NCBI GenBank assembly: GCA_043811005.1
Contig: JBDRNO010000094.1
Span: 319-64,318, forward strand
From: Bacteroidota bacterium
GTDB lineage: Bacteria > Bacteroidota > Bacteroidia > NORP154
Length of the DNA stretch: 64,000 bases
Direction: 5' to 3'
Shown here one piece after another: positions 26,100 to 48,975 of this stretch. The notes beneath the pieces were generated by a model, which was not told the origin of the DNA, did no database searches, and saw only the letters and a list, made by a program, of their open reading frames with translations. The position numbers and the translations under genes are program-made. Position 1 is the first letter of the stretch, and each line of letters starts with the position of its first letter.

Positions 26100-26106
26100 C
26101 TAACAA

Positions 26107-26190
26107 CATTGGGGGTGTCCACCAGCTGGCGGACTGAGATCATACCCTTTGAACCTGATGCAGGTAATGCTGCCGTAGGAAAAAGCAATG
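26107..26190 (+). promoter_or_regulatory. TPP (THI-box) riboswitch aptamer
   Basis: The sequence cattgGGGGTGtccaccagctggcggaCTGAGAtcatACCCTTTGAACCTGATgcaGGtAATGCtgcCGTAGGAAaaagcaatg contains the conserved CUGAGA, ACCCUUUGAACCUGAU and AAUGC...CGUAGG(G)AA blocks. P1 pairs cattg/caatg. It lies upstream of thiS-thiC. Confidence 0.9.
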
Positions 26191-26281
26191 ACCCATCTCA
26201 ATTTCCCCCCAAATATTTTTATAGTTTACTCATGAAATAATTTCTTTTCAAAGGTATTACTCACTCTCATATTAGTTTATA

Positions 26282-27071: not shown

Positions 27072-28961
<1,890 letters not shown>

Positions 28962-29976: not shown

Positions 29977-30747
29977 TTGACAGACTCAAAATTTTCACAT
30001 AACCATTTACTAAGCATAGCGGGATTAGACCCGTCTGCAGGGGCGGGAATTCTTGCTGATGTCAAAACCTTTGAAACACACCGTCTTTATGGATTTGTGG
30101 TATGCACCGGCTTAACCTTTCAAAATGATGTTGATTTTTACGATATTAAATGGATAGATGTTAAGGATATTATCAGGCAAACAGATGTTCTTTATGAAAG
30201 GTTTACGATTGATTGGATAAAGATCGGATTGATCGAGAACTTAGAGGTTCTGGAAGAAATCATCAATTATTTAAAATCCCGTAACCCTAAAGTGAAAATA
30301 ATCTGGGACCCAATATTAAAAGCAAGTGCCGGCTTTATTTTTCATGATCAACCGGACAGGAAGAAACTATTGAACATTTGTAAAAAGTTGTACTTGATCA
30401 CACCCAATTCCCGGGAAATAAAAACCATGTTTCCAGAAATGGAAGAACAAAAGGCGGGAGAATATTTAAGCCGGTTCTGCAGCGTCTTTTTAAAAAGCTG
30501 GAAAACCGAAAACCGTGAAGTCATAGATATATTATATAATGGTAAAGAAAAGGTTCATTTATTTGGCAAAATGATTAATACAGATAAGCACGGAACCGGA
30601 TGCATTTTCTCCTCCGCTGTTCTCGCTAACCTGGCACAAGGGAAGTCACTTTTGAAATCATGCCAAAATGCAAAATCATACGTGAGCAAATTCCGGGCAA
30701 GCGATAAGGGGAAATTAGGATTTCACTATTATGACCATGTTACATAA
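29977..30747 (+). CDS. thiD: Hydroxymethylpyrimidine/phosphomethylpyrimidine kinase
   Basis: LSIAGLDPSAGAGILADVKTF, ITPN and KHGTGC are ribokinase-family ThiD motifs. It uses a TTG start. Confidence 0.85.
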   Translation: MTDSKFSHNHLLSIAGLDPSAGAGILADVKTFETHRLYGFVVCTGLTFQNDVDFYDIKWIDVKDIIRQTDVLYERFTIDWIKIGLIENLEVLEEIINYLKSRNPKVKIIWDPILKASAGFIFHDQPDRKKLLNICKKLYLITPNSREIKTMFPEMEEQKAGEYLSRFCSVFLKSWKTENREVIDILYNGKEKVHLFGKMINTDKHGTGCIFSSAVLANLAQGKSLLKSCQNAKSYVSKFRASDKGKLGFHYYDHVT

Positions 30748-31435
30748 TAACTACTTGAACGTGAATGTGAGTGTGAAATGTAGAAAAAATATAGTGAGTA
30801 AATTCCGAAACAATAACATATCAAAATTCCACTATATTACACAAGATGTTACAGGATTAACCCATGCTGAATTAGCAGAGCTGGCATGCAGGGGAGGTGC
30901 GGACTGGGTGCAGTTAAGGGTTAAGGATAAAAATTATGATGATTGGAAAAAAATTACAATTGAAACCCGGAAAATATGTAAATCTTATAATGCCACATTT
31001 ATTATTAATGATAATGTTGAATTAGCCGGAGAAATTCAAGCAGATGGTGTTCATCTGGGAAAAGAGGATATGCATCCGGCAAAAGCAAGGGAGATTTTAG
31101 GAGATAGTTATATTATTGGCGCAACAGCCAACACTTTTGAGGATATTCAAAATCTTACGGTTTTAAAAATTGATTACATTGGATTAGGACCTTTCAGACA
31201 TACAGTAACCAAAAAAAATATAAACAAAATCATTGGTATTGAGGGATTCAGACAAATATTGAACAATTGCCGGGCGTCAGGTATTACGATACCTGTTATC
31301 GCGATTGGGGGGATTAATACTGAAGATATCACTGATTTATTAAAAACCGGGATTTACGGTGTTGCTGTTTCTTCAGCAATTAACTTAGCTGAAGATAAAA
31401 CAAAAGTAACAGAATTGTTATTAAAACGATTGTAA
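30731..31435 (+). CDS. thiE: Thiamine-phosphate synthase
   Basis: VQLRVKD, IINDNVELA...ADGVHLGKEDM, GLGPFR.T.TK and AIGGI are ThiE motifs. The exact start is uncertain, and it overlaps thiD by 17 nt. Confidence 0.85.
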   Translation: MTMLHNNYLNVNVSVKCRKNIVSKFRNNNISKFHYITQDVTGLTHAELAELACRGGADWVQLRVKDKNYDDWKKITIETRKICKSYNATFIINDNVELAGEIQADGVHLGKEDMHPAKAREILGDSYIIGATANTFEDIQNLTVLKIDYIGLGPFRHTVTKKNINKIIGIEGFRQILNNCRASGITIPVIAIGGINTEDITDLLKTGIYGVAVSSAINLAEDKTKVTELLLKRL

Positions 31436-31622
31436 CTAATCAGTTTATTGAGAGATGGTTGTATGGATCGTTATACTACAAAATTGTTATGTTGCTAAAC
31501 TGTTCGATTGTTCGACTGTTGAATGGTTTGTTTTAACAATCGAGCCATTGAGCAATTGAACAATGAATAAATAAGTGTCTGACTGAATAATTACTAATTT
31601 CAATGAGACGCTGATTAGTAAC
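31432..31622. repeat. Palindromic ~190-bp element between thiE and thiG
   Basis: Outer inverted repeat gtaactaatcag (31432-31443) / ctgattagtaac (31611-31622), 11/12 match. Inner inverted repeat gttcgactgttgaatgg / ccattgagcaattgaac. The left arm overlaps the thiE stop codon (31433-31435). Confidence 0.55.
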
Positions 31623-31661
31623 AAACGATTAACTATTAATGTTTAACAATTAACTTTTTTT

Positions 31662-32468
31662 ATGGAACAATTAATAATAGCAGACAAAACATTCAACTCC
31701 CGTTTATTAACCGGAACAGGAAAATTCAGTTCCAACGAATTGATGGAAGAAGCATTGCTTGCATCCGGAACAGAGTTGGTAACCGTTGCTTTAAAACGTG
31801 TAAATCTTAACCTTCCTAAATTAAACCCTCAGGGCTTCAAAAACCCTGAGGGTTTGCATGATGATATTTTACAGCATTTAGACCATCCCCGGTTTAATTT
31901 GCTTCCTAATACTTCTGGTGTTAGAACCGCCAAAGAAGCTGTTTTTGCCGCTCAAATGGCTCGTGAGGCATTGGAAACCAATTGGTTGAAACTGGAAATT
32001 CATCCAGACCCGAAATATTTACTGCCCGACCCTATTGAAACATTAAAAGCGGCAGAAGAATTGGTAAAGCTGGGCTTCGTTGTTCTACCATACACTCATG
32101 CCGATCCTGTTCTATGTAAACGGCTGGAAGAAGCTGGTACGGCTGCGGTTATGCCATTAGGGTCTCCGATTGGCAGCAATAAAGGATTACAGATGAAAGA
32201 TATGCTGGAAATAATAATTGAGCAAAGTAATGTACCGGTAATAGTGGATGCAGGCATAGGCAGTCCTTCGGATGCGGCAAAGGCAATGGAAATGGGGGCG
32301 GATGCCGTTCTTGTTAATACAGCTATCGCTGTTTCTTCCAACCCGGCGAAAATGGCTATAGCATTTAAAATGGCTGTTGAAGCCGGTAGAATGGCTTATG
32401 AAGCGAAATTGGGGAGAACCTCTGTTAAAGCAGTAGCAACAAGCCCGTTGACTGCATTTTTGGATTAA
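31662..32468 (+). CDS. thiG: Thiazole synthase with an in-frame hairpin insert
   Basis: Collinear with E. coli ThiG as I recall it ([79 protein letters not shown]), except for about 13 extra residues. Confidence 0.95.
31823..31855. repeat. Perfect 12-bp-stem hairpin, in frame inside thiG
   Basis: AAACCCTCAGGG (31823-31834), loop cttcaaaaa, CCCTGAGGGTTT (31844-31855). It encodes [13 protein letters not shown]. Confidence 0.85.
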
Positions 32469-32651
32469 TAAAAAAATAATTGTATGTGACCTTAGTTAGA
32501 AAGATTATTATATGCAACACAGAGATTCTCAAAGAAGGATATACATTAAAAAACAGTGGATTAAACACAATTTGCCTGTTAATAAATATTGTTTCATTTC
32601 AAACCAAAAACCAGATTTTTCATATCTAAATCAATTACACTTTGTTGAATA

Positions 32652-33782
32652 ATGACATTCAAAAAATTATATGATACTTATTCCTGGGATGAAGTTGGGC
32701 AAAGCATCTATTCCAAAACTTCTTCTGATGTTGAGATTGCTTTATGCAGGGCAAAAGCGGGATCTCGTAAACCTGCTTTTTGCCTCGAAGACTTTAAGGC
32801 ATTGATATCCCCTGCAGCAGCTCCTTTTCTTGAAGAAATGGCAGAATTAAGCCTGCAAATGACACAAAAACGATTTGGCAAGACAGTGCAAATGTACATT
32901 CCCCTGTACCTATCCAATGAATGTCAAAATATATGCACCTACTGCGGTTATAGTTTCAACAACAATATTAAACGGATAACACTTACTGATGAACAAATTT
33001 TAGAAGAAGTGCAAGCCATTAAATCGCATGGCTTTGACCACATCTTGCTGGTTACAGGAGAAGCATATAAAATCGTTGGAATTGAGTATTTTAAAAATGT
33101 CCTGAAACTTGTAAGACACTATTTTTCTCATCTATCCATGGAAATTCAACCATTGGACAAGGAAGATTATGAACAGTTGATATCTCTTGGATTAAATACT
33201 GTATATATTTACCAGGAAACATATAATAAATCCGGGTATAAAACCTATCATCTCAAAGGCAGAAAATCAAATTTTTATTCCCGTCTGGAAACACCTGACC
33301 GGTTGGGCAGTGCAGGTATATATAAGATCGGTTTGGGTTGCCTGATAGGATTGGAAGATTGGAGAACAGACGCATTTTTCACTACGTTACACCTCAATTA
33401 TCTCGAAAAGAAATACTGGAAGACAAAGTATTCTATCTCTTTTCCAAGATTAAGACCGGCAGAAGGCGCGATGCAACCAAGGATTGTAATTAGTGATAAA
33501 GAGCTTGTCCAGTTAATTTGTGCTTACCGGATCCTTAATGAAGAAGTCGAGCTGACATTGTCAACACGTGAATCGGTGAATTTCAGAGACAATGTTATCA
33601 AGTTAGGTATTACATCCGTCAGTGCCGGCTCAAAGACATACCCGGGTGGTTATACAAAAGGACGGCAAACGTTGGAGCAATTTGAAATTTCTGATCAAAG
33701 AACTCCACACGAAATTGTTGAGATGATCAAATCACGTGGATATGAAGCTGTATGGAAAGATTGGGATGCGGTGATGGGATGA
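32652..33782 (+). CDS. thiH: 2-iminoacetate synthase (radical SAM tyrosine lyase)
   Basis: Radical SAM CxxxCxxC (CQNICTYCGY) and collinearity with ThiH (SPAA..., FG, ...). thi operon context. Confidence 0.9.
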   Translation: MTFKKLYDTYSWDEVGQSIYSKTSSDVEIALCRAKAGSRKPAFCLEDFKALISPAAAPFLEEMAELSLQMTQKRFGKTVQMYIPLYLSNECQNICTYCGYSFNNNIKRITLTDEQILEEVQAIKSHGFDHILLVTGEAYKIVGIEYFKNVLKLVRHYFSHLSMEIQPLDKEDYEQLISLGLNTVYIYQETYNKSGYKTYHLKGRKSNFYSRLETPDRLGSAGIYKIGLGCLIGLEDWRTDAFFTTLHLNYLEKKYWKTKYSISFPRLRPAEGAMQPRIVISDKELVQLICAYRILNEEVELTLSTRESVNFRDNVIKLGITSVSAGSKTYPGGYTKGRQTLEQFEISDQRTPHEIVEMIKSRGYEAVWKDWDAVMG

Positions 33783-33847
33783 AAGATTCATCACATTACA
33801 TTAATGAGTAAGGTTAATAATAATGAAAACCTAACCTGCATAAAGCA

Positions 33848-34047
33848 GTTTTTAGTTTTTGGTTTGTTAGTTATAGTTGAATGGTTTTTAGTTTTGGTTT
33901 GAAAGTTATTTCGTTTCCCGCACATTTAAGCAACCTCGCGAGAATGTTTTACTAAAACAAGTAATCAGGCAATGGAACAAAACCAATAACTAAAAAACTA
34001 AAACAAGTAACAAGATAACCATAACTCTAAACCAATAAACTAAAAAC
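33848..34047. mobile_element. MITE-like 200-bp element between thiH and thiF
   Basis: 31-bp terminal arms gtttttagtttttggtttgttagttatagtt (33848-33878) and aaccataactctaaaccaataaactaaaaac (34017-34047). 24/31 match ungapped as an inverted repeat. Confidence 0.55.
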
Positions 34048-34056
34048 ATTGGTAAC

Positions 34057-34081
34057 AGAGACGCCCAATTTGGGCGTCTCT
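34057..34081. repeat. Perfect GC-rich hairpin agagacgccc-aattt-gggcgtctct
   Basis: 10-12 bp perfect stem within the thiH-thiF spacer. No T-run follows. Confidence 0.6.
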
Positions 34082-34161
34082 ACTTTACGAAAGGTCAGGA
34101 TGTCTGAAATTATTGATCCCAACAAATTTGTTGGAAATAAGTTCATTTTAAAGATTATAAC

Positions 34162-35292
34162 ATGCTTTCCAAAGAAGAATTAAAACGATATTCCCGCCAC
34201 ATCATTATCCCTGAGATCGGATTGAAAGGCCAGGAGAAATTGAAACAGGCAAAGGTACTGGTGATAGGTGCAGGTGGGTTGGGTTGTCCTGTGTTACAAT
34301 ACCTGACAGCTGCGGGGGTCGGAAATATTGGAATTGTTGATTTTGATGTTGTTGATGAAAGTAACCTGCACAGGCAGATATTATTTGATACAAATGATAT
34401 AGGAAAATCCAAAGTTGAAGTAGCAAAACAAAAGCTAATAGCTCAAAACCCCTATATGAAATTTGATGTCATTAATTCAAAGCTGACCAAAAACAATGCC
34501 CTTGACATCATTAAGGATTATCATATTGTTGTTGACGGCTCTGATAATTTCCCAACCAGGTATTTGATAAATGATGCCTGTATGATATTGGGTAAGCCGC
34601 TTGTTTTTGGCTCTATCTATAAATTTGAGGGACAGGTGTCGGTATTTAATTACAAAGGAGGCCCTACCTACCGCTGCCTGTTTCCACAACCACCAAAATC
34701 ACAGGATGCTCCAAGTTGCTCGGAGATAGGTGTTTTAGGCGTTTTGCCCGGTATAACCGGCTGTTTTCAGGCAAACGAGGTTATCAAGATCATCACAGGT
34801 ATTGGCAAACCTCTTTCCGGGAAATTGCTGGTTATTGATGCCTTATCCCTTAATACAAACATTATAGAATTTTCACGTATTGAGGGAAATTGTAATATTA
34901 AAGAATTAATTGACTATGAATATTTTTGTGGGGTTGACGATATATCTCATTCTGATGAGAAGGAAAAGAGAGGGGTAAAAGGGATCACCGTTTCGGAACT
35001 AAAAAAAAGATTAGATAACAATGAGGATTTACAGATCATTGATGTAAGGAAAGAATTTGAATATAATATATGCAACCTTGGAGGCGAACTAATACCCCTT
35101 GGCAATATTTTGAATGATTTTGACAGGATATTAAAAGATAAGCCCGTGATAGTTGTATGTCATCACGGAAACAGAAGCGCTAAAGCCATTAAGATATTAA
35201 CTGAAAAAACCGGTTTTGACAACCTGTTGAATTTGACAGGAGGTGTTCATGCATGGGCTGAGGAGATTGATCAAAGTATGGCTAAATATTAA
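34162..35292 (+). CDS. thiF: ThiF/MoeB-type adenylyltransferase with C-terminal rhodanese domain
   Basis: RYSRHI, nucleotide loop GAGGLG, the CxxC pair region, and a rhodanese active-site loop CHHGNRS. Confidence 0.88.
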   Translation: MLSKEELKRYSRHIIIPEIGLKGQEKLKQAKVLVIGAGGLGCPVLQYLTAAGVGNIGIVDFDVVDESNLHRQILFDTNDIGKSKVEVAKQKLIAQNPYMKFDVINSKLTKNNALDIIKDYHIVVDGSDNFPTRYLINDACMILGKPLVFGSIYKFEGQVSVFNYKGGPTYRCLFPQPPKSQDAPSCSEIGVLGVLPGITGCFQANEVIKIITGIGKPLSGKLLVIDALSLNTNIIEFSRIEGNCNIKELIDYEYFCGVDDISHSDEKEKRGVKGITVSELKKRLDNNEDLQIIDVRKEFEYNICNLGGELIPLGNILNDFDRILKDKPVIVVCHHGNRSAKAIKILTEKTGFDNLLNLTGGVHAWAEEIDQSMAKY

Positions 35293-47501: not shown

Positions 47502-47649
47502 TTTGACTAACCCCGACCTTCAGGTCGGGGTAAAGAATACAATTAAACACACTGGGGTTTTAACCCCCAATTTCCTTGTTTGTTATGGGCTAAAGCCCAA
47601 TTGGGTATCAGGATTTTAATCCCCGACTTAAAAGTCGGGGTTAGTCAAA
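47502..47649. repeat. 148-bp composite palindromic element containing four GC hairpins
   Basis: The outer perfect 16-bp inverted repeat is tttgactaaccccgac (47502-47517) / gtcggggttagtcaaa (47634-47649). The internal hairpins are ccccgacc-ttca-ggtcgggg, ggggtt-tt-aacccc, gggct-aa-agccc and ccccgac-ttaaaa-gtcgggg. Confidence 0.7.
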
Positions 47650-47683: not shown

Positions 47684-48694
47684 TTGAGACCCCGTTACAA
47701 TAAATTATACTTTTTACCCCGTCATTTGTTAGGGCTTATTTTTTTTGCTTTTTTCTTTACTTCCTGCAGCACCAATAACAACCCCGTATTGCCTGCCATT
47801 ACCGGTAAGGCGGGAGAGATAATTGTAGTTATTGAAAAAAAAAATTGGGACTCTAACGTTGGCAAACAAATAAAAGCTTGCCTGGCTCAACAACACATAG
47901 CTTTACCCCAGCCCGAACCGGTTTTTACCTTAGTTAATATTCCAAACAAGTCCTTTACAGGGCTTTTAAAATCCCACCGTAACATATTGATAATTAATAT
48001 TTCCCGGAACGAAAAGCCATCTGTTATTGTTAAAAAAGATGTATGGTCAACCCCGCAATTGGTAGTTAAAATAACTGCTTCAAATAAAGATGAGCTTGTT
48101 GATTTGATAAATAAAAACAAAGGATCATTAGTCAATTATTACATTAATATTGAAAAAAAGCGGTTAATGTCGAAATACGCTAAAATTGAAGAAAAGAGCA
48201 TTACAAAAAAACTCATAAAAGATCATCAGTTATCGCTGACAGTGCCAAAGACTTATGAAATTGCCAAAGAGCATGAAAAATTTATCTGGATAAGAAGAGA
48301 AACAAATGAGACGAGCCATGGAATTTTGATATATTATTATGACTATGTAGACTCTAATACTTTTACAAGGGCATATATTCTGTCTGCCAGGGATTCAATC
48401 ACGAAGCGATATATACCAGGACCTACAACAGGTTCTTATATGTCTACAATGCGTGATTATCCTGCAGCCATAAAAAAGATGGATTTTAAAGGCATGTATG
48501 CTATTGAGACGAGAGGATTGTGGAACGTACATGGCGATTTTATGGGAGGGCCTTTTTTAAACTACACCATACTTGACGAGCAGAGAAACAGGGTAGTAAC
48601 AGTTGAAGGATATGTTTATGCCCCGAAATTCGATAAGAGAAATTACCTGCGGCAGGTGGAAGCGATATTATGTTCGTTGAAGATTCATTCTTAA
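47684..48694 (+). CDS. DUF4837 family lipoprotein
   Basis: Lipobox FFTSCS. Collinear with the DUF4837 pattern I recall (..W....G..I.......LPQ.EP.F.......F.......RN......, KF.WIRR, IPGP..GSYM, GLW.V...FMGGPF.NY...D...NR.V.VEG.V.AP...KR.Y....EAI). It uses a TTG start. Confidence 0.75.
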   Translation: MRPRYNKLYFLPRHLLGLIFFAFFFTSCSTNNNPVLPAITGKAGEIIVVIEKKNWDSNVGKQIKACLAQQHIALPQPEPVFTLVNIPNKSFTGLLKSHRNILIINISRNEKPSVIVKKDVWSTPQLVVKITASNKDELVDLINKNKGSLVNYYINIEKKRLMSKYAKIEEKSITKKLIKDHQLSLTVPKTYEIAKEHEKFIWIRRETNETSHGILIYYYDYVDSNTFTRAYILSARDSITKRYIPGPTTGSYMSTMRDYPAAIKKMDFKGMYAIETRGLWNVHGDFMGGPFLNYTILDEQRNRVVTVEGYVYAPKFDKRNYLRQVEAILCSLKIHS

Positions 48695-48774: not shown

Positions 48775-48975
48775 ATTCCTCATTTCGTTCCGCTGCGCTC
48801 CACTAAATTCGGAATGACAGCGTTTTTGAGAGAAACGTGGAGGGAGAGCGGTTGCGGGAACATAGAGCCGCTGCATACAACGTCTATACATTCCTGTTCC
48901 CGCACCCGCTCTCCCTCTTTACAAAAAAAATCACTGTCATTCCGATCCGCCAGCTGGCGGAGGAGTGAGGAATCT
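48775..48975. repeat. 200-bp nested palindrome built from two REP-like units around a 23-bp-stem hairpin
   Basis: attcctca (48775-48782) / tgaggaat (48966-48973). cggaatgacag (48810-48820) / ctgtcattccg (48934-48944). gagggagagcggttgcgggaaca / tgttcccgcacccgctctccctc has one mismatch in 23. The right unit contains CCGCCAGCTGGCGG. Confidence 0.75.

Follow-up and report, generated by a model that had tools for sequence, protein, structure and literature searches.

A probable in-frame copy of a REP/REPIN-like repeat in the thiazole synthase gene thiG of a Bacteroidota bacterium

The locus studied lies in a 64,000-nucleotide (nt) stretch of contig JBDRNO010000094.1 from a Bacteroidota bacterium (assembly GCA_043811005.1); this whole stretch is called the window below. 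At 31662..32468 on the + strand, the window carries thiG, the gene of thiazole synthase, as an uninterrupted open reading frame (ORF) encoding 268 amino acids, and inside this gene lies a 33-nt palindrome (31823..31855, strand not assigned), which an initial annotation had described as a perfect hairpin with a 12-bp stem inserted in frame. The identity of thiG was examined with Pfam, sequence alignments and an AlphaFold2 (AF2) model. The product matched Pfam family PF05690 with 354 bits (E 4e-106) and was 44-49% identical to solved ThiG structures. The catalytic lysine that forms the Schiff base was retained: K110 corresponds to K96 of B. subtilis ThiG and was invariant in the alignment. The full-length PF05690 match, the conserved lysine and the barrel fold of the model all mark the protein as a ThiG.

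The palindrome reads AAACCCTCAGGGCTT-CAA-AAACCCTGAGGGTTT. The sequence reported for these positions in the initial annotation, AAACCCTCAGGG-cttcaaaaa-CCCTGAGGGTTT, was read back from the window and found to be identical, and the 12-bp stem was re-derived within the 268-codon ORF. The outer 12 bp were paired perfectly, and the arms could be extended to 15 nt, of which 14 positions were paired around a 3-nt loop. The 5' arm (31823..31837, + strand) forms a first mini-hairpin unit, AAACC-CTCAG-GGCTT, in which C31835 gives the sole mismatch (C/A); it is followed by the central loop CAA (31838..31840, +) and by the 3' arm (31841..31855, +), a second mini-hairpin unit, AAACC-CTGAG-GGTTT, which is an inverted copy of the first. 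The two arms, each of which is partly self-complementary, could also be read as a direct repeat with 14 of 18 positions matching. The inverted pattern was found in none of 100 shuffles, and the calculated folding energies were -21.8 kcal/mol for RNA (z -4.3) and -13.2 kcal/mol for DNA (z -5.6). Because of the shuffling result and these z-scores, a chance origin of the hairpin was excluded. Perfect hairpins with a stem of 9 bp or longer numbered 15 in the window; 13 were intergenic, and among those within ORFs the thiG hairpin alone reached 10 bp or more.

To define the limits of the insertion, thiG was aligned with 83 Bacteroidota thiG loci. The insertion comprised 39 nt in frame (31821..31859, + strand; codons 54-66) between ...CTT CCT AAA and GAT GAT ATT. 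The 13 added codons, TTA AAC CCT CAG GGC TTC AAA AAC CCT GAG GGT TTG CAT, consist of the 33-nt palindrome with TT on its 5' side and GCAT on its 3' side. The segment running from VALKR to [LI]LPNT was 25 residues long in 68 of the 83 loci, 26 residues long in seven and 38 residues long in the window, so that the earlier estimate of about 13 extra residues was exact (38 against 25 residues; 39 nt equal 13 codons). The canonical loop, LNLPK, was intact, as seen by comparison with locus L014 RVNLNSPEDDIL (RVN-LNSPE-DDIL), and the extra codons were located between K and DD. In the alignment with B. subtilis ThiG (1TYG), a 12-residue gap opened between F48 and E49. No other internal insertions or deletions were found in the ThiG alignments.

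The AF2 model, built from an alignment of 120 homologs, had a mean confidence (pLDDT) of 82 and a predicted template modelling score (pTM) of 0.79. Residues 49-66, which had a pLDDT below 50, were located between the strand at 39-43 and the helix at 69-73. Therefore, the insert was assigned to the beta2-alpha2 loop and was predicted to be floppy; the initial annotation had expected the same location. The (beta/alpha)8 fold was otherwise normal, with target-normalised template modelling scores of approximately 0.9 against 5Z9Y, 1TYG, 2HTM and 1WV2.

The same loop was then compared among ThiG relatives. The orthologs P0003 and P0004, which are close (85% identity), did not contain the insert, and neither did distant orthologs; the check by ortholog alignment that had been proposed earlier thus showed an insertion relative to both. 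The closest homolog, P0002 (locus L001, 81% nt identity), carried a perfect 33-nt palindrome, AAACCCTCAAGGTTTT-A-AAAACCTTGAGGGTTT, at this loop. Four positions distinguished it from the window copy, and two of these formed a compensatory pair (A-T instead of G-C). P0003 (locus L002) had the plain canonical loop though it was 90% nt-identical to L001, and the tree was (window,(L001,L002)), with L002 empty at the loop.

Inserts at this loop were also found in other lineages. Locus L004 carried a perfect 35-nt palindrome, GATACTTCAAAAGTTTT-G-AAAACTTTTGAAGTATC, which is similar to the window palindrome and its relatives described below in its length and centre and identical to them at 22 of 33 positions. 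Loci L003 and L087 carried a 24-nt insert enclosing the whole hairpin CCTCCCC-TTC-GGGGAGG, which was absent from the 90%-identical locus L086, and the inserts in L005 and L076 were weaker or decayed. The initial annotation had named, as the contrary case, orthologs with an equivalent loop but no palindromic DNA; instead, the inserts at the loop in other lineages mostly carried palindromes of their own. The genome of L004 (GCA_038918445.1, JBCLAD010000002.1), which has its own ThiG-loop palindrome, contained a second perfect palindrome, TTTCCCCCTTCGAAGGGGGAAA, at 833-854, located in frame (FPPSKGET) in an ABC-transporter gene.

A search for other copies, which had also been suggested, gave none further in the window by repeat and arm-pairing scans and many outside it. 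Metagenomes were scanned with a single pattern, AACCCTCARGG-N3-15-CCYTGAGGGTT, and near-identical palindromes with unrelated flanks were found at at least 120 loci, a number that includes the same locus repeated in related genomes; by a rough estimate, a few matches were expected by chance. The following sequence statistics refer to the matches listed. The consensus of 59 low-G+C 33-mers was A-AACCCTCA[A/G]GGTTTT-N-AAAACC[T/C]TGAGGGTT-T, and the flanks were unconserved. A single base separated one member (L113) from the window copy, and three (L107, L120 and L136) were identical to the L001 copy. The general form was A[AG]ACC-N5-GGTTT, a centre of 1-3 nt and AAACC-N5'-GGT[TC]T; it comprises two 15-nt units in inverted orientation, both of them small hairpins in themselves. 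Copies with unique flanks lay between unidirectional ORFs in 31 cases, between convergent ORFs in 20 and between divergent ORFs in three, and the median distance of copies to a gene 3' end was 23 nt. Carriage of the family by phages was rejected, since no more than two of the matches were located in viral contigs.

The density of copies was estimated by an arm-pairing scan. One copy was found in the 64-kb window and none in the shuffled window, and two copies were found in 323 kb around thiG in 87 loci (L001-L087; Bacteroidota genomes and metagenome contigs). Nine copies were present in the 20.6 kb of L211 and six in the 8.9 kb of L194.

Further palindromes similar to this family were observed. 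In a Flavobacterium sp. metagenome-assembled genome (MAG), a family-like palindrome, AACCCTTTCAGGGTTTTGAACCCTGAAAGGGTT, was located at L062 2278-2310. It lies 16 nt downstream of where the thiG match ends, a position typical of the extragenic copies. Soil metagenome loci of approximately 70% G+C (L091, L095 3788-3860, L161 and about 30 others) carried a palindrome family, AACCCTCAAGGGGGTC-A-GACCCCCTTGAGGGTT, of 33 nt, sometimes in tandem. This G+C-rich family has the length and the outer 11 nt of the A+T-rich one; because the search pattern itself required these 11 nt, their sharing does not decide whether the two families are homologous.

The possibility that the hairpin arose locally was considered. 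In that case, adjacent thiG sequence would have been copied in reverse orientation by a replication template switch, a snap-back or a tandem duplication, which would have created a lineage-specific hairpin. Hairpins produced by template switching copy adjacent sequence and are unique and local; their stems are perfect, and differences between them are symmetric in both arms. The family resembles them in its perfect stems and in the both-arm differences between copies, and a local origin would also fit the lack of a second copy in the window, the perfect stems of L001 and L004 and the arms that double as a 14/18 direct repeat. However, the canonical loop was intact and the whole palindrome lay within the 39-nt insert, so neither arm is ancestral. 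The parallel case of L003 and L086, in which the 24-nt insert likewise holds the whole hairpin, leads to the same result. Moreover, near-identical 33-mers were found at more than 100 unrelated loci, whereas a template-switch product is not repeated elsewhere; the thiG palindrome is wholly foreign to the ancestral loop. Local origin was considered very improbable, and template switching and tandem duplication were rejected on the basis of the intact canonical loop and the dispersed copies.

It was also considered whether the hairpin is a selected mRNA structure (a site of translational pausing, of RNase action or of mRNA stabilisation, or an attenuator within the operon) that tunes thiG-thiH-thiF expression. 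The stability of the RNA hairpin given above, the occurrence of hairpins of differing sequence in this loop across several lineages of ThiG and the compensatory stem pair (G-C in the window and A-T in L001) are consistent with such a role. However, approximately 90% of Bacteroidota thiG genes contained no insert at this position. No Rfam family matched the thiG hairpin, the scan of the window giving only a tRNA and a thiamine pyrophosphate (TPP) riboswitch. No terminator-like site was found in 31400-32700, and the stem is followed by TTTGCATG, with no T/U run; on this ground an intrinsic terminator was ruled out. The G/A-C/T variants at the compensatory pair were both standard subtypes of the family, and the copies elsewhere were generic and located downstream of genes. 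In 84 distinct members, which had been preselected for at least 13 of 15 pairs, both-side changes were found at 11 of the 15 stem pairs, while G-U pairs were rare and no commoner than other mismatches. Because nearly all stem pairs were of the Watson-Crick type and G-U pairs were scarce, a hairpin acting at the DNA level, or a young age of the copies, fits better than selection on RNA. A selected mRNA structure was therefore regarded as improbable.

A gene of about 200 codons was found together with the family in L093, L194, L210, L211 and L212, flanked by family copies, which lay 20-55 nt upstream on one side and, on the other, coincided with its stop codon or followed it closely. Its product contained the motifs NHFH and YIHNNP (HUH/Y1, TnpA_REP-like) and matched the NCBIfam model REP_Tyr_transpos, 'REP-associated tyrosine transposase' (RAYT), with E 1.5e-12, where REP denotes a repetitive extragenic palindrome. 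The best match in the PDB was E. coli TnpA_REP (4ER8), which was weak (E 0.02) and spanned the HuH and Y motifs. The JGI family is named 'REP element-mobilizing transposase RayT', and its named hosts are genera of Bacteroidales and Marinilabiliales. The peptide encoded by the element, in the form LN[PL]xGFxN[LP]xGL, was present between NHFH and YIHNNP in all 18 aligned homologs. These features agree with subclass 2.4 of TnpA_REP as described for Cyanobacteria and Bacteroidetes by Quentin et al. (PMC6006769), in which the motifs are NH[IFV]H and YIxNNP, the protein has approximately 194 amino acids and REPs are found in frame within the gene.

In three distinct Bacteroidales genomes, the RAYT-like gene formed part of a type I CRISPR-cas operon, with cas3 (or cas7/cas5) on one side and cas4-cas1-cas2 on the other. 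These copies, at L208 10001-10597 (Saccharicrinis fermentans KI912107.1), L210 10001-10624 and L211 10001-10621, encode proteins that are 65-78% identical. A literature search found no account of a RAYT-like gene within CRISPR-cas. A link between the palindrome and the CRISPR repeat of those cas loci was ruled out, as the repeat, CCCTTAATCGTACCATACTGGAATTGAAAC, is unrelated. Close to a GIY-YIG gene in L093, two family palindromes were followed by an 84-nt direct repeat (1620-1703 and 1868-1952). The sequences of L093 and L105 agreed up to a palindrome, beyond which one continued into the RAYT-like gene and the other into cas4; this suggests a rearrangement or deletion at the repeats.

Seven family copies were located in recognisable genes, and in all seven the first base of the element was at codon position 3. 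The two ThiG copies, in the window and in L001, were in frame and in identical phase, which gives an N/P/G-rich peptide. The element peptides of the other copies were SDLTGFKNLSGL in Cas3 of L211, LNLEGFENLQGL in the RAYT-like gene of L211, LNLQGFENPEGL in the RAYT-like gene of L210, NPQGSRNPEGS in PheS of L096 (Candidatus Roizmanbacteria) and NPQGSWNPEGS in IleRS of L183. The peptide pattern of the shared phase was N-P/L-x-G-F/S-x-N-P/L-x-G-L/S. Of the remaining two phases, one contained stops (...TTT TAA... or ...CCC TGA...) and the other gave peptides of the T-L-K/R-V type, a phase used by the diverged L004 palindrome alone. Since the N/P/G-rich peptide suits surface loops, the phase bias was read as survivorship. 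In the alignment with PheS of P. aeruginosa, the PheS copy fell within a 16-residue gap, and the region of the IleRS copy was five residues longer than in 8C9D.

The PheS zinc-knuckle loop (CxxC...CxxC) of Ca. Roizmanbacteria (L096 6146-6176; P0241-P0360) was found to be a hot spot with variable in-frame inserts of 3-35 residues. Many of these inserts keep remnants of the palindrome, such as NPEG, NLQG and HPQG. Others contain the recurring peptides VILSEAKNPE, SLDSARDD and RLRGNDN, which look like translated copies of other repeat families.

Could the 13 residues have been selected for ThiG function, for example, for contact with a partner, the palindrome being incidental? Insertions recur at this loop, and a beta-to-alpha loop such as beta2-alpha2 lies on the catalytic face of a TIM barrel, both of which speak for an adaptive peptide. 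However, the same peptide was found in the unrelated proteins PheS, IleRS, Cas3 and the RAYT-like protein, the loop inserts were wholly different between lineages and the region was predicted to be disordered. This explanation was considered highly improbable. An artefact of assembly or sequencing was held to be scarcely credible: the source is a MAG and there is a single record of this exact protein, but the insertion preserves the reading frame exactly, a homologous element was found at the same loop in an independent ENA assembly (L001) and in-frame copies of the family are present in many independent assemblies.

Considering these results together, it may be concluded, with a probability of roughly 0.8, that the thiG hairpin is an in-frame intragenic copy of a REP/REPIN-like dispersed repeat family, inserted as a 39-nt piece. 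The suggestion in the initial annotation that a small palindromic element has been tolerated within an essential enzyme is borne out by the insertion relative to orthologs, the dispersed family and the intact ThiG ORF. According to the mechanism proposed, a repeat of about 33 nt, composed of two inverted AAACC-N5-GGTTT units around a centre of 1-3 nt, would have entered the one loop of ThiG that tolerates insertions and deletions, and the form moved by a RAYT would have been the single-stranded hairpin DNA of the element. The insertion may have survived in thiG owing to its stop-free phase, the loop peptide N-P-x-G-F-x-N-P-x-G-L and the disordered, variable character of the loop, so that ThiG would still fold and work. 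In this genome, the copy most probably persists as a passive and slightly decayed relic that has no function of its own, because it has one C/A mismatch, is single in 64 kb and has no RAYT nearby.

Several results weigh against assigning the hairpin to a REP/REPIN-like family. Neither the family consensus nor its flanks contained a GT[AG]G or CGTC tag. The window contained a lone copy and no homolog of the RAYT-like gene, which makes membership in a repeat family within the host genome itself only putative. The RAYT-like gene scored 47.6 bits against an NCBIfam cutoff of 80, and its product had no Pfam match. Saccharicrinis fermentans has the RAYT-like gene, yet just a relic hairpin was found in 20 kb. 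The metagenome scan relied on one pattern, with the repeated loci noted above included in its count. Mobilisation of the element by a RAYT is proposed here from sequence; we infer this enzymatic step, because the family has no GT[AG]G foot and the window no RAYT homolog. Finally, the tree of the window, L001 and L002 fits one ancestral insertion and two independent ones alike. In the first case, one old insertion would have been followed by its precise loss in L002 and by a 15-nt deletion in L001; in the second, the insertions in the window and in L001 would have occurred independently. Two independent insertions are favoured because both copies match different common family variants near-exactly.

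The element was compared with known systems. The family resembles REPs and REPINs in being a dispersed palindrome of 20-40 nt that mostly follows a gene at a distance of up to about 20 nt, where the neighbouring ORFs are unidirectional or convergent; for REPs, a position near gene 3' ends with this ORF orientation was described by Di Nocera et al. 2013 (PMC3733652). As in REPINs, two inverted units form a doublet. Like subclass 2.4 (group 4 of Bertels; PMC6006769), the family is associated with a single-copy HUH/Y1 gene of about 200 amino acids with NH[F]H and YIxNNP, flanked by repeats. In contrast to REPs and REPINs, the family has no 5' GT[AG]G or CGTC tag, its stems are perfect rather than bulged and the window contains a single copy with no RAYT; in contrast to subclass 2.4, its range includes Ca. 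Roizmanbacteria as well as Bacteroidota. Since the family carries no tag, and since multiple copies and a RAYT-like gene flanked by them were seen in other genomes while the 64 kb of the window gave one copy and no RAYT, the element is filed as REP/REPIN-like. A literature search on the sequence returned no description of the repeat family, only unrelated primers. A miniature inverted-repeat transposable element (70-300 bp, bounded by terminal inverted repeats and flanked by a target-site duplication) was ruled out: the element measures 33 nt and is palindromic over its entire length, and no duplication was evident at its junctions.

Intragenic palindromes have precedents. In PMC3733652, GTAG and CGTC REPs of several phyla were reported inside genes, tRNA synthetase genes included, without a break of the frame, and were read as insertions tolerated by proteins unrelated to one another; those REPs belong to another sequence family, with tags, and to other host phyla than the element in thiG, and thiG was not found among the intragenic REP hosts named in the passages of that article consulted. 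The same text describes Rickettsia palindromic elements (RPEs) in frame in likely functional protein genes, where they encode surface peptides, and it counts the short, CGTC-tagged RPE-4 and RPE-6 among intragenic CGTC REPs. As with RPEs, the in-frame insertion in thiG leaves the gene intact (39 nt, no stop, catalytic lysine kept). However, RPEs are confined to Rickettsia, have no sequence similarity to the thiG family and are not associated with a RAYT. RPE-1 elements are approximately 100-150 bp long, and the thiG element is 33-39 nt long.

A more far-reaching hypothesis is that the AAACC-N5-GGTTT doublet represents an untagged, undescribed REPIN family that crosses phyla (Bacteroidota, Ca. 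Roizmanbacteria and perhaps the soil relative of approximately 70% G+C), whose sequence is shaped so that one stop-free phase encodes the loop peptide, which would allow it to settle in coding loops, and whose distribution reflects a real target preference and not mere survivorship. Under this hypothesis, the element would have struck repeatedly at the beta2-alpha2 loop of ThiG, in at least three lineages, and at the zinc-knuckle loop of Roizmanbacteria PheS. It was regarded as unlikely.

The thi operon of the window was complete, and thiG was highly conserved apart from the loop. The operon is headed by a TPP riboswitch (26101..26198, + strand; Rfam RF00059, 66 bits) and contains thiC (27090-28961), thiD (29977-30747), thiE (30731-31435), thiG, thiH (32652-33782) and a ThiF-like gene (34162-35292); the names of the neighbours of thiG rest on synteny with L003 and L005. 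The spacers at 31436-31661 (226 nt), 32469-32651 (183 nt) and 33783-34161 (379 nt) were unusually long, and in L001 and L002 the thiE-thiG and thiG-thiH junctions were 18 nt or overlapping. The spacers contained imperfect inverted repeats (31483-31564), long A/T-rich arms (33850-34050) and a perfect 12-bp hairpin (34057-34081), and none of these repeats recurred in the window. Elsewhere in the window, a G+C-rich inverted repeat with 23-nt arms, which were 96% complementary and 32 nt apart, was located at 48840-48917, in the intergenic region beyond an ORF ending at 48694. G+C-rich perfect hairpins were found nearby at 47510-47531 and 47621-47640 (ACCCCGACC.. and CCCCGAC..).

In-frame palindromic repeats were already known from Rickettsia RPEs, from GTAG/CGTC REPs (PMC3733652) and from subclass 2.4 tnpA_REP genes (PMC6006769), and the thiG case does not change the understanding of how such elements work. 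The apparently new points are the repeat family, for which a simple sequence definition now exists, its occurrence in Bacteroidota and in a lineage of the candidate phyla radiation, the strict adherence of its intragenic copies to one codon phase and the recurrence of insertions at a single ThiG loop. The insertion sites flag loops in ThiG and PheS that tolerate 8-13 extra residues, which is of use to protein engineers and to annotators who might suspect assembly errors. The hairpin in an essential enzyme gene is thus explained, at the probability given above, as the trace left by a selfish palindromic repeat, and it would provide a clean example of such an insertion beyond Rickettsia and Proteobacteria.

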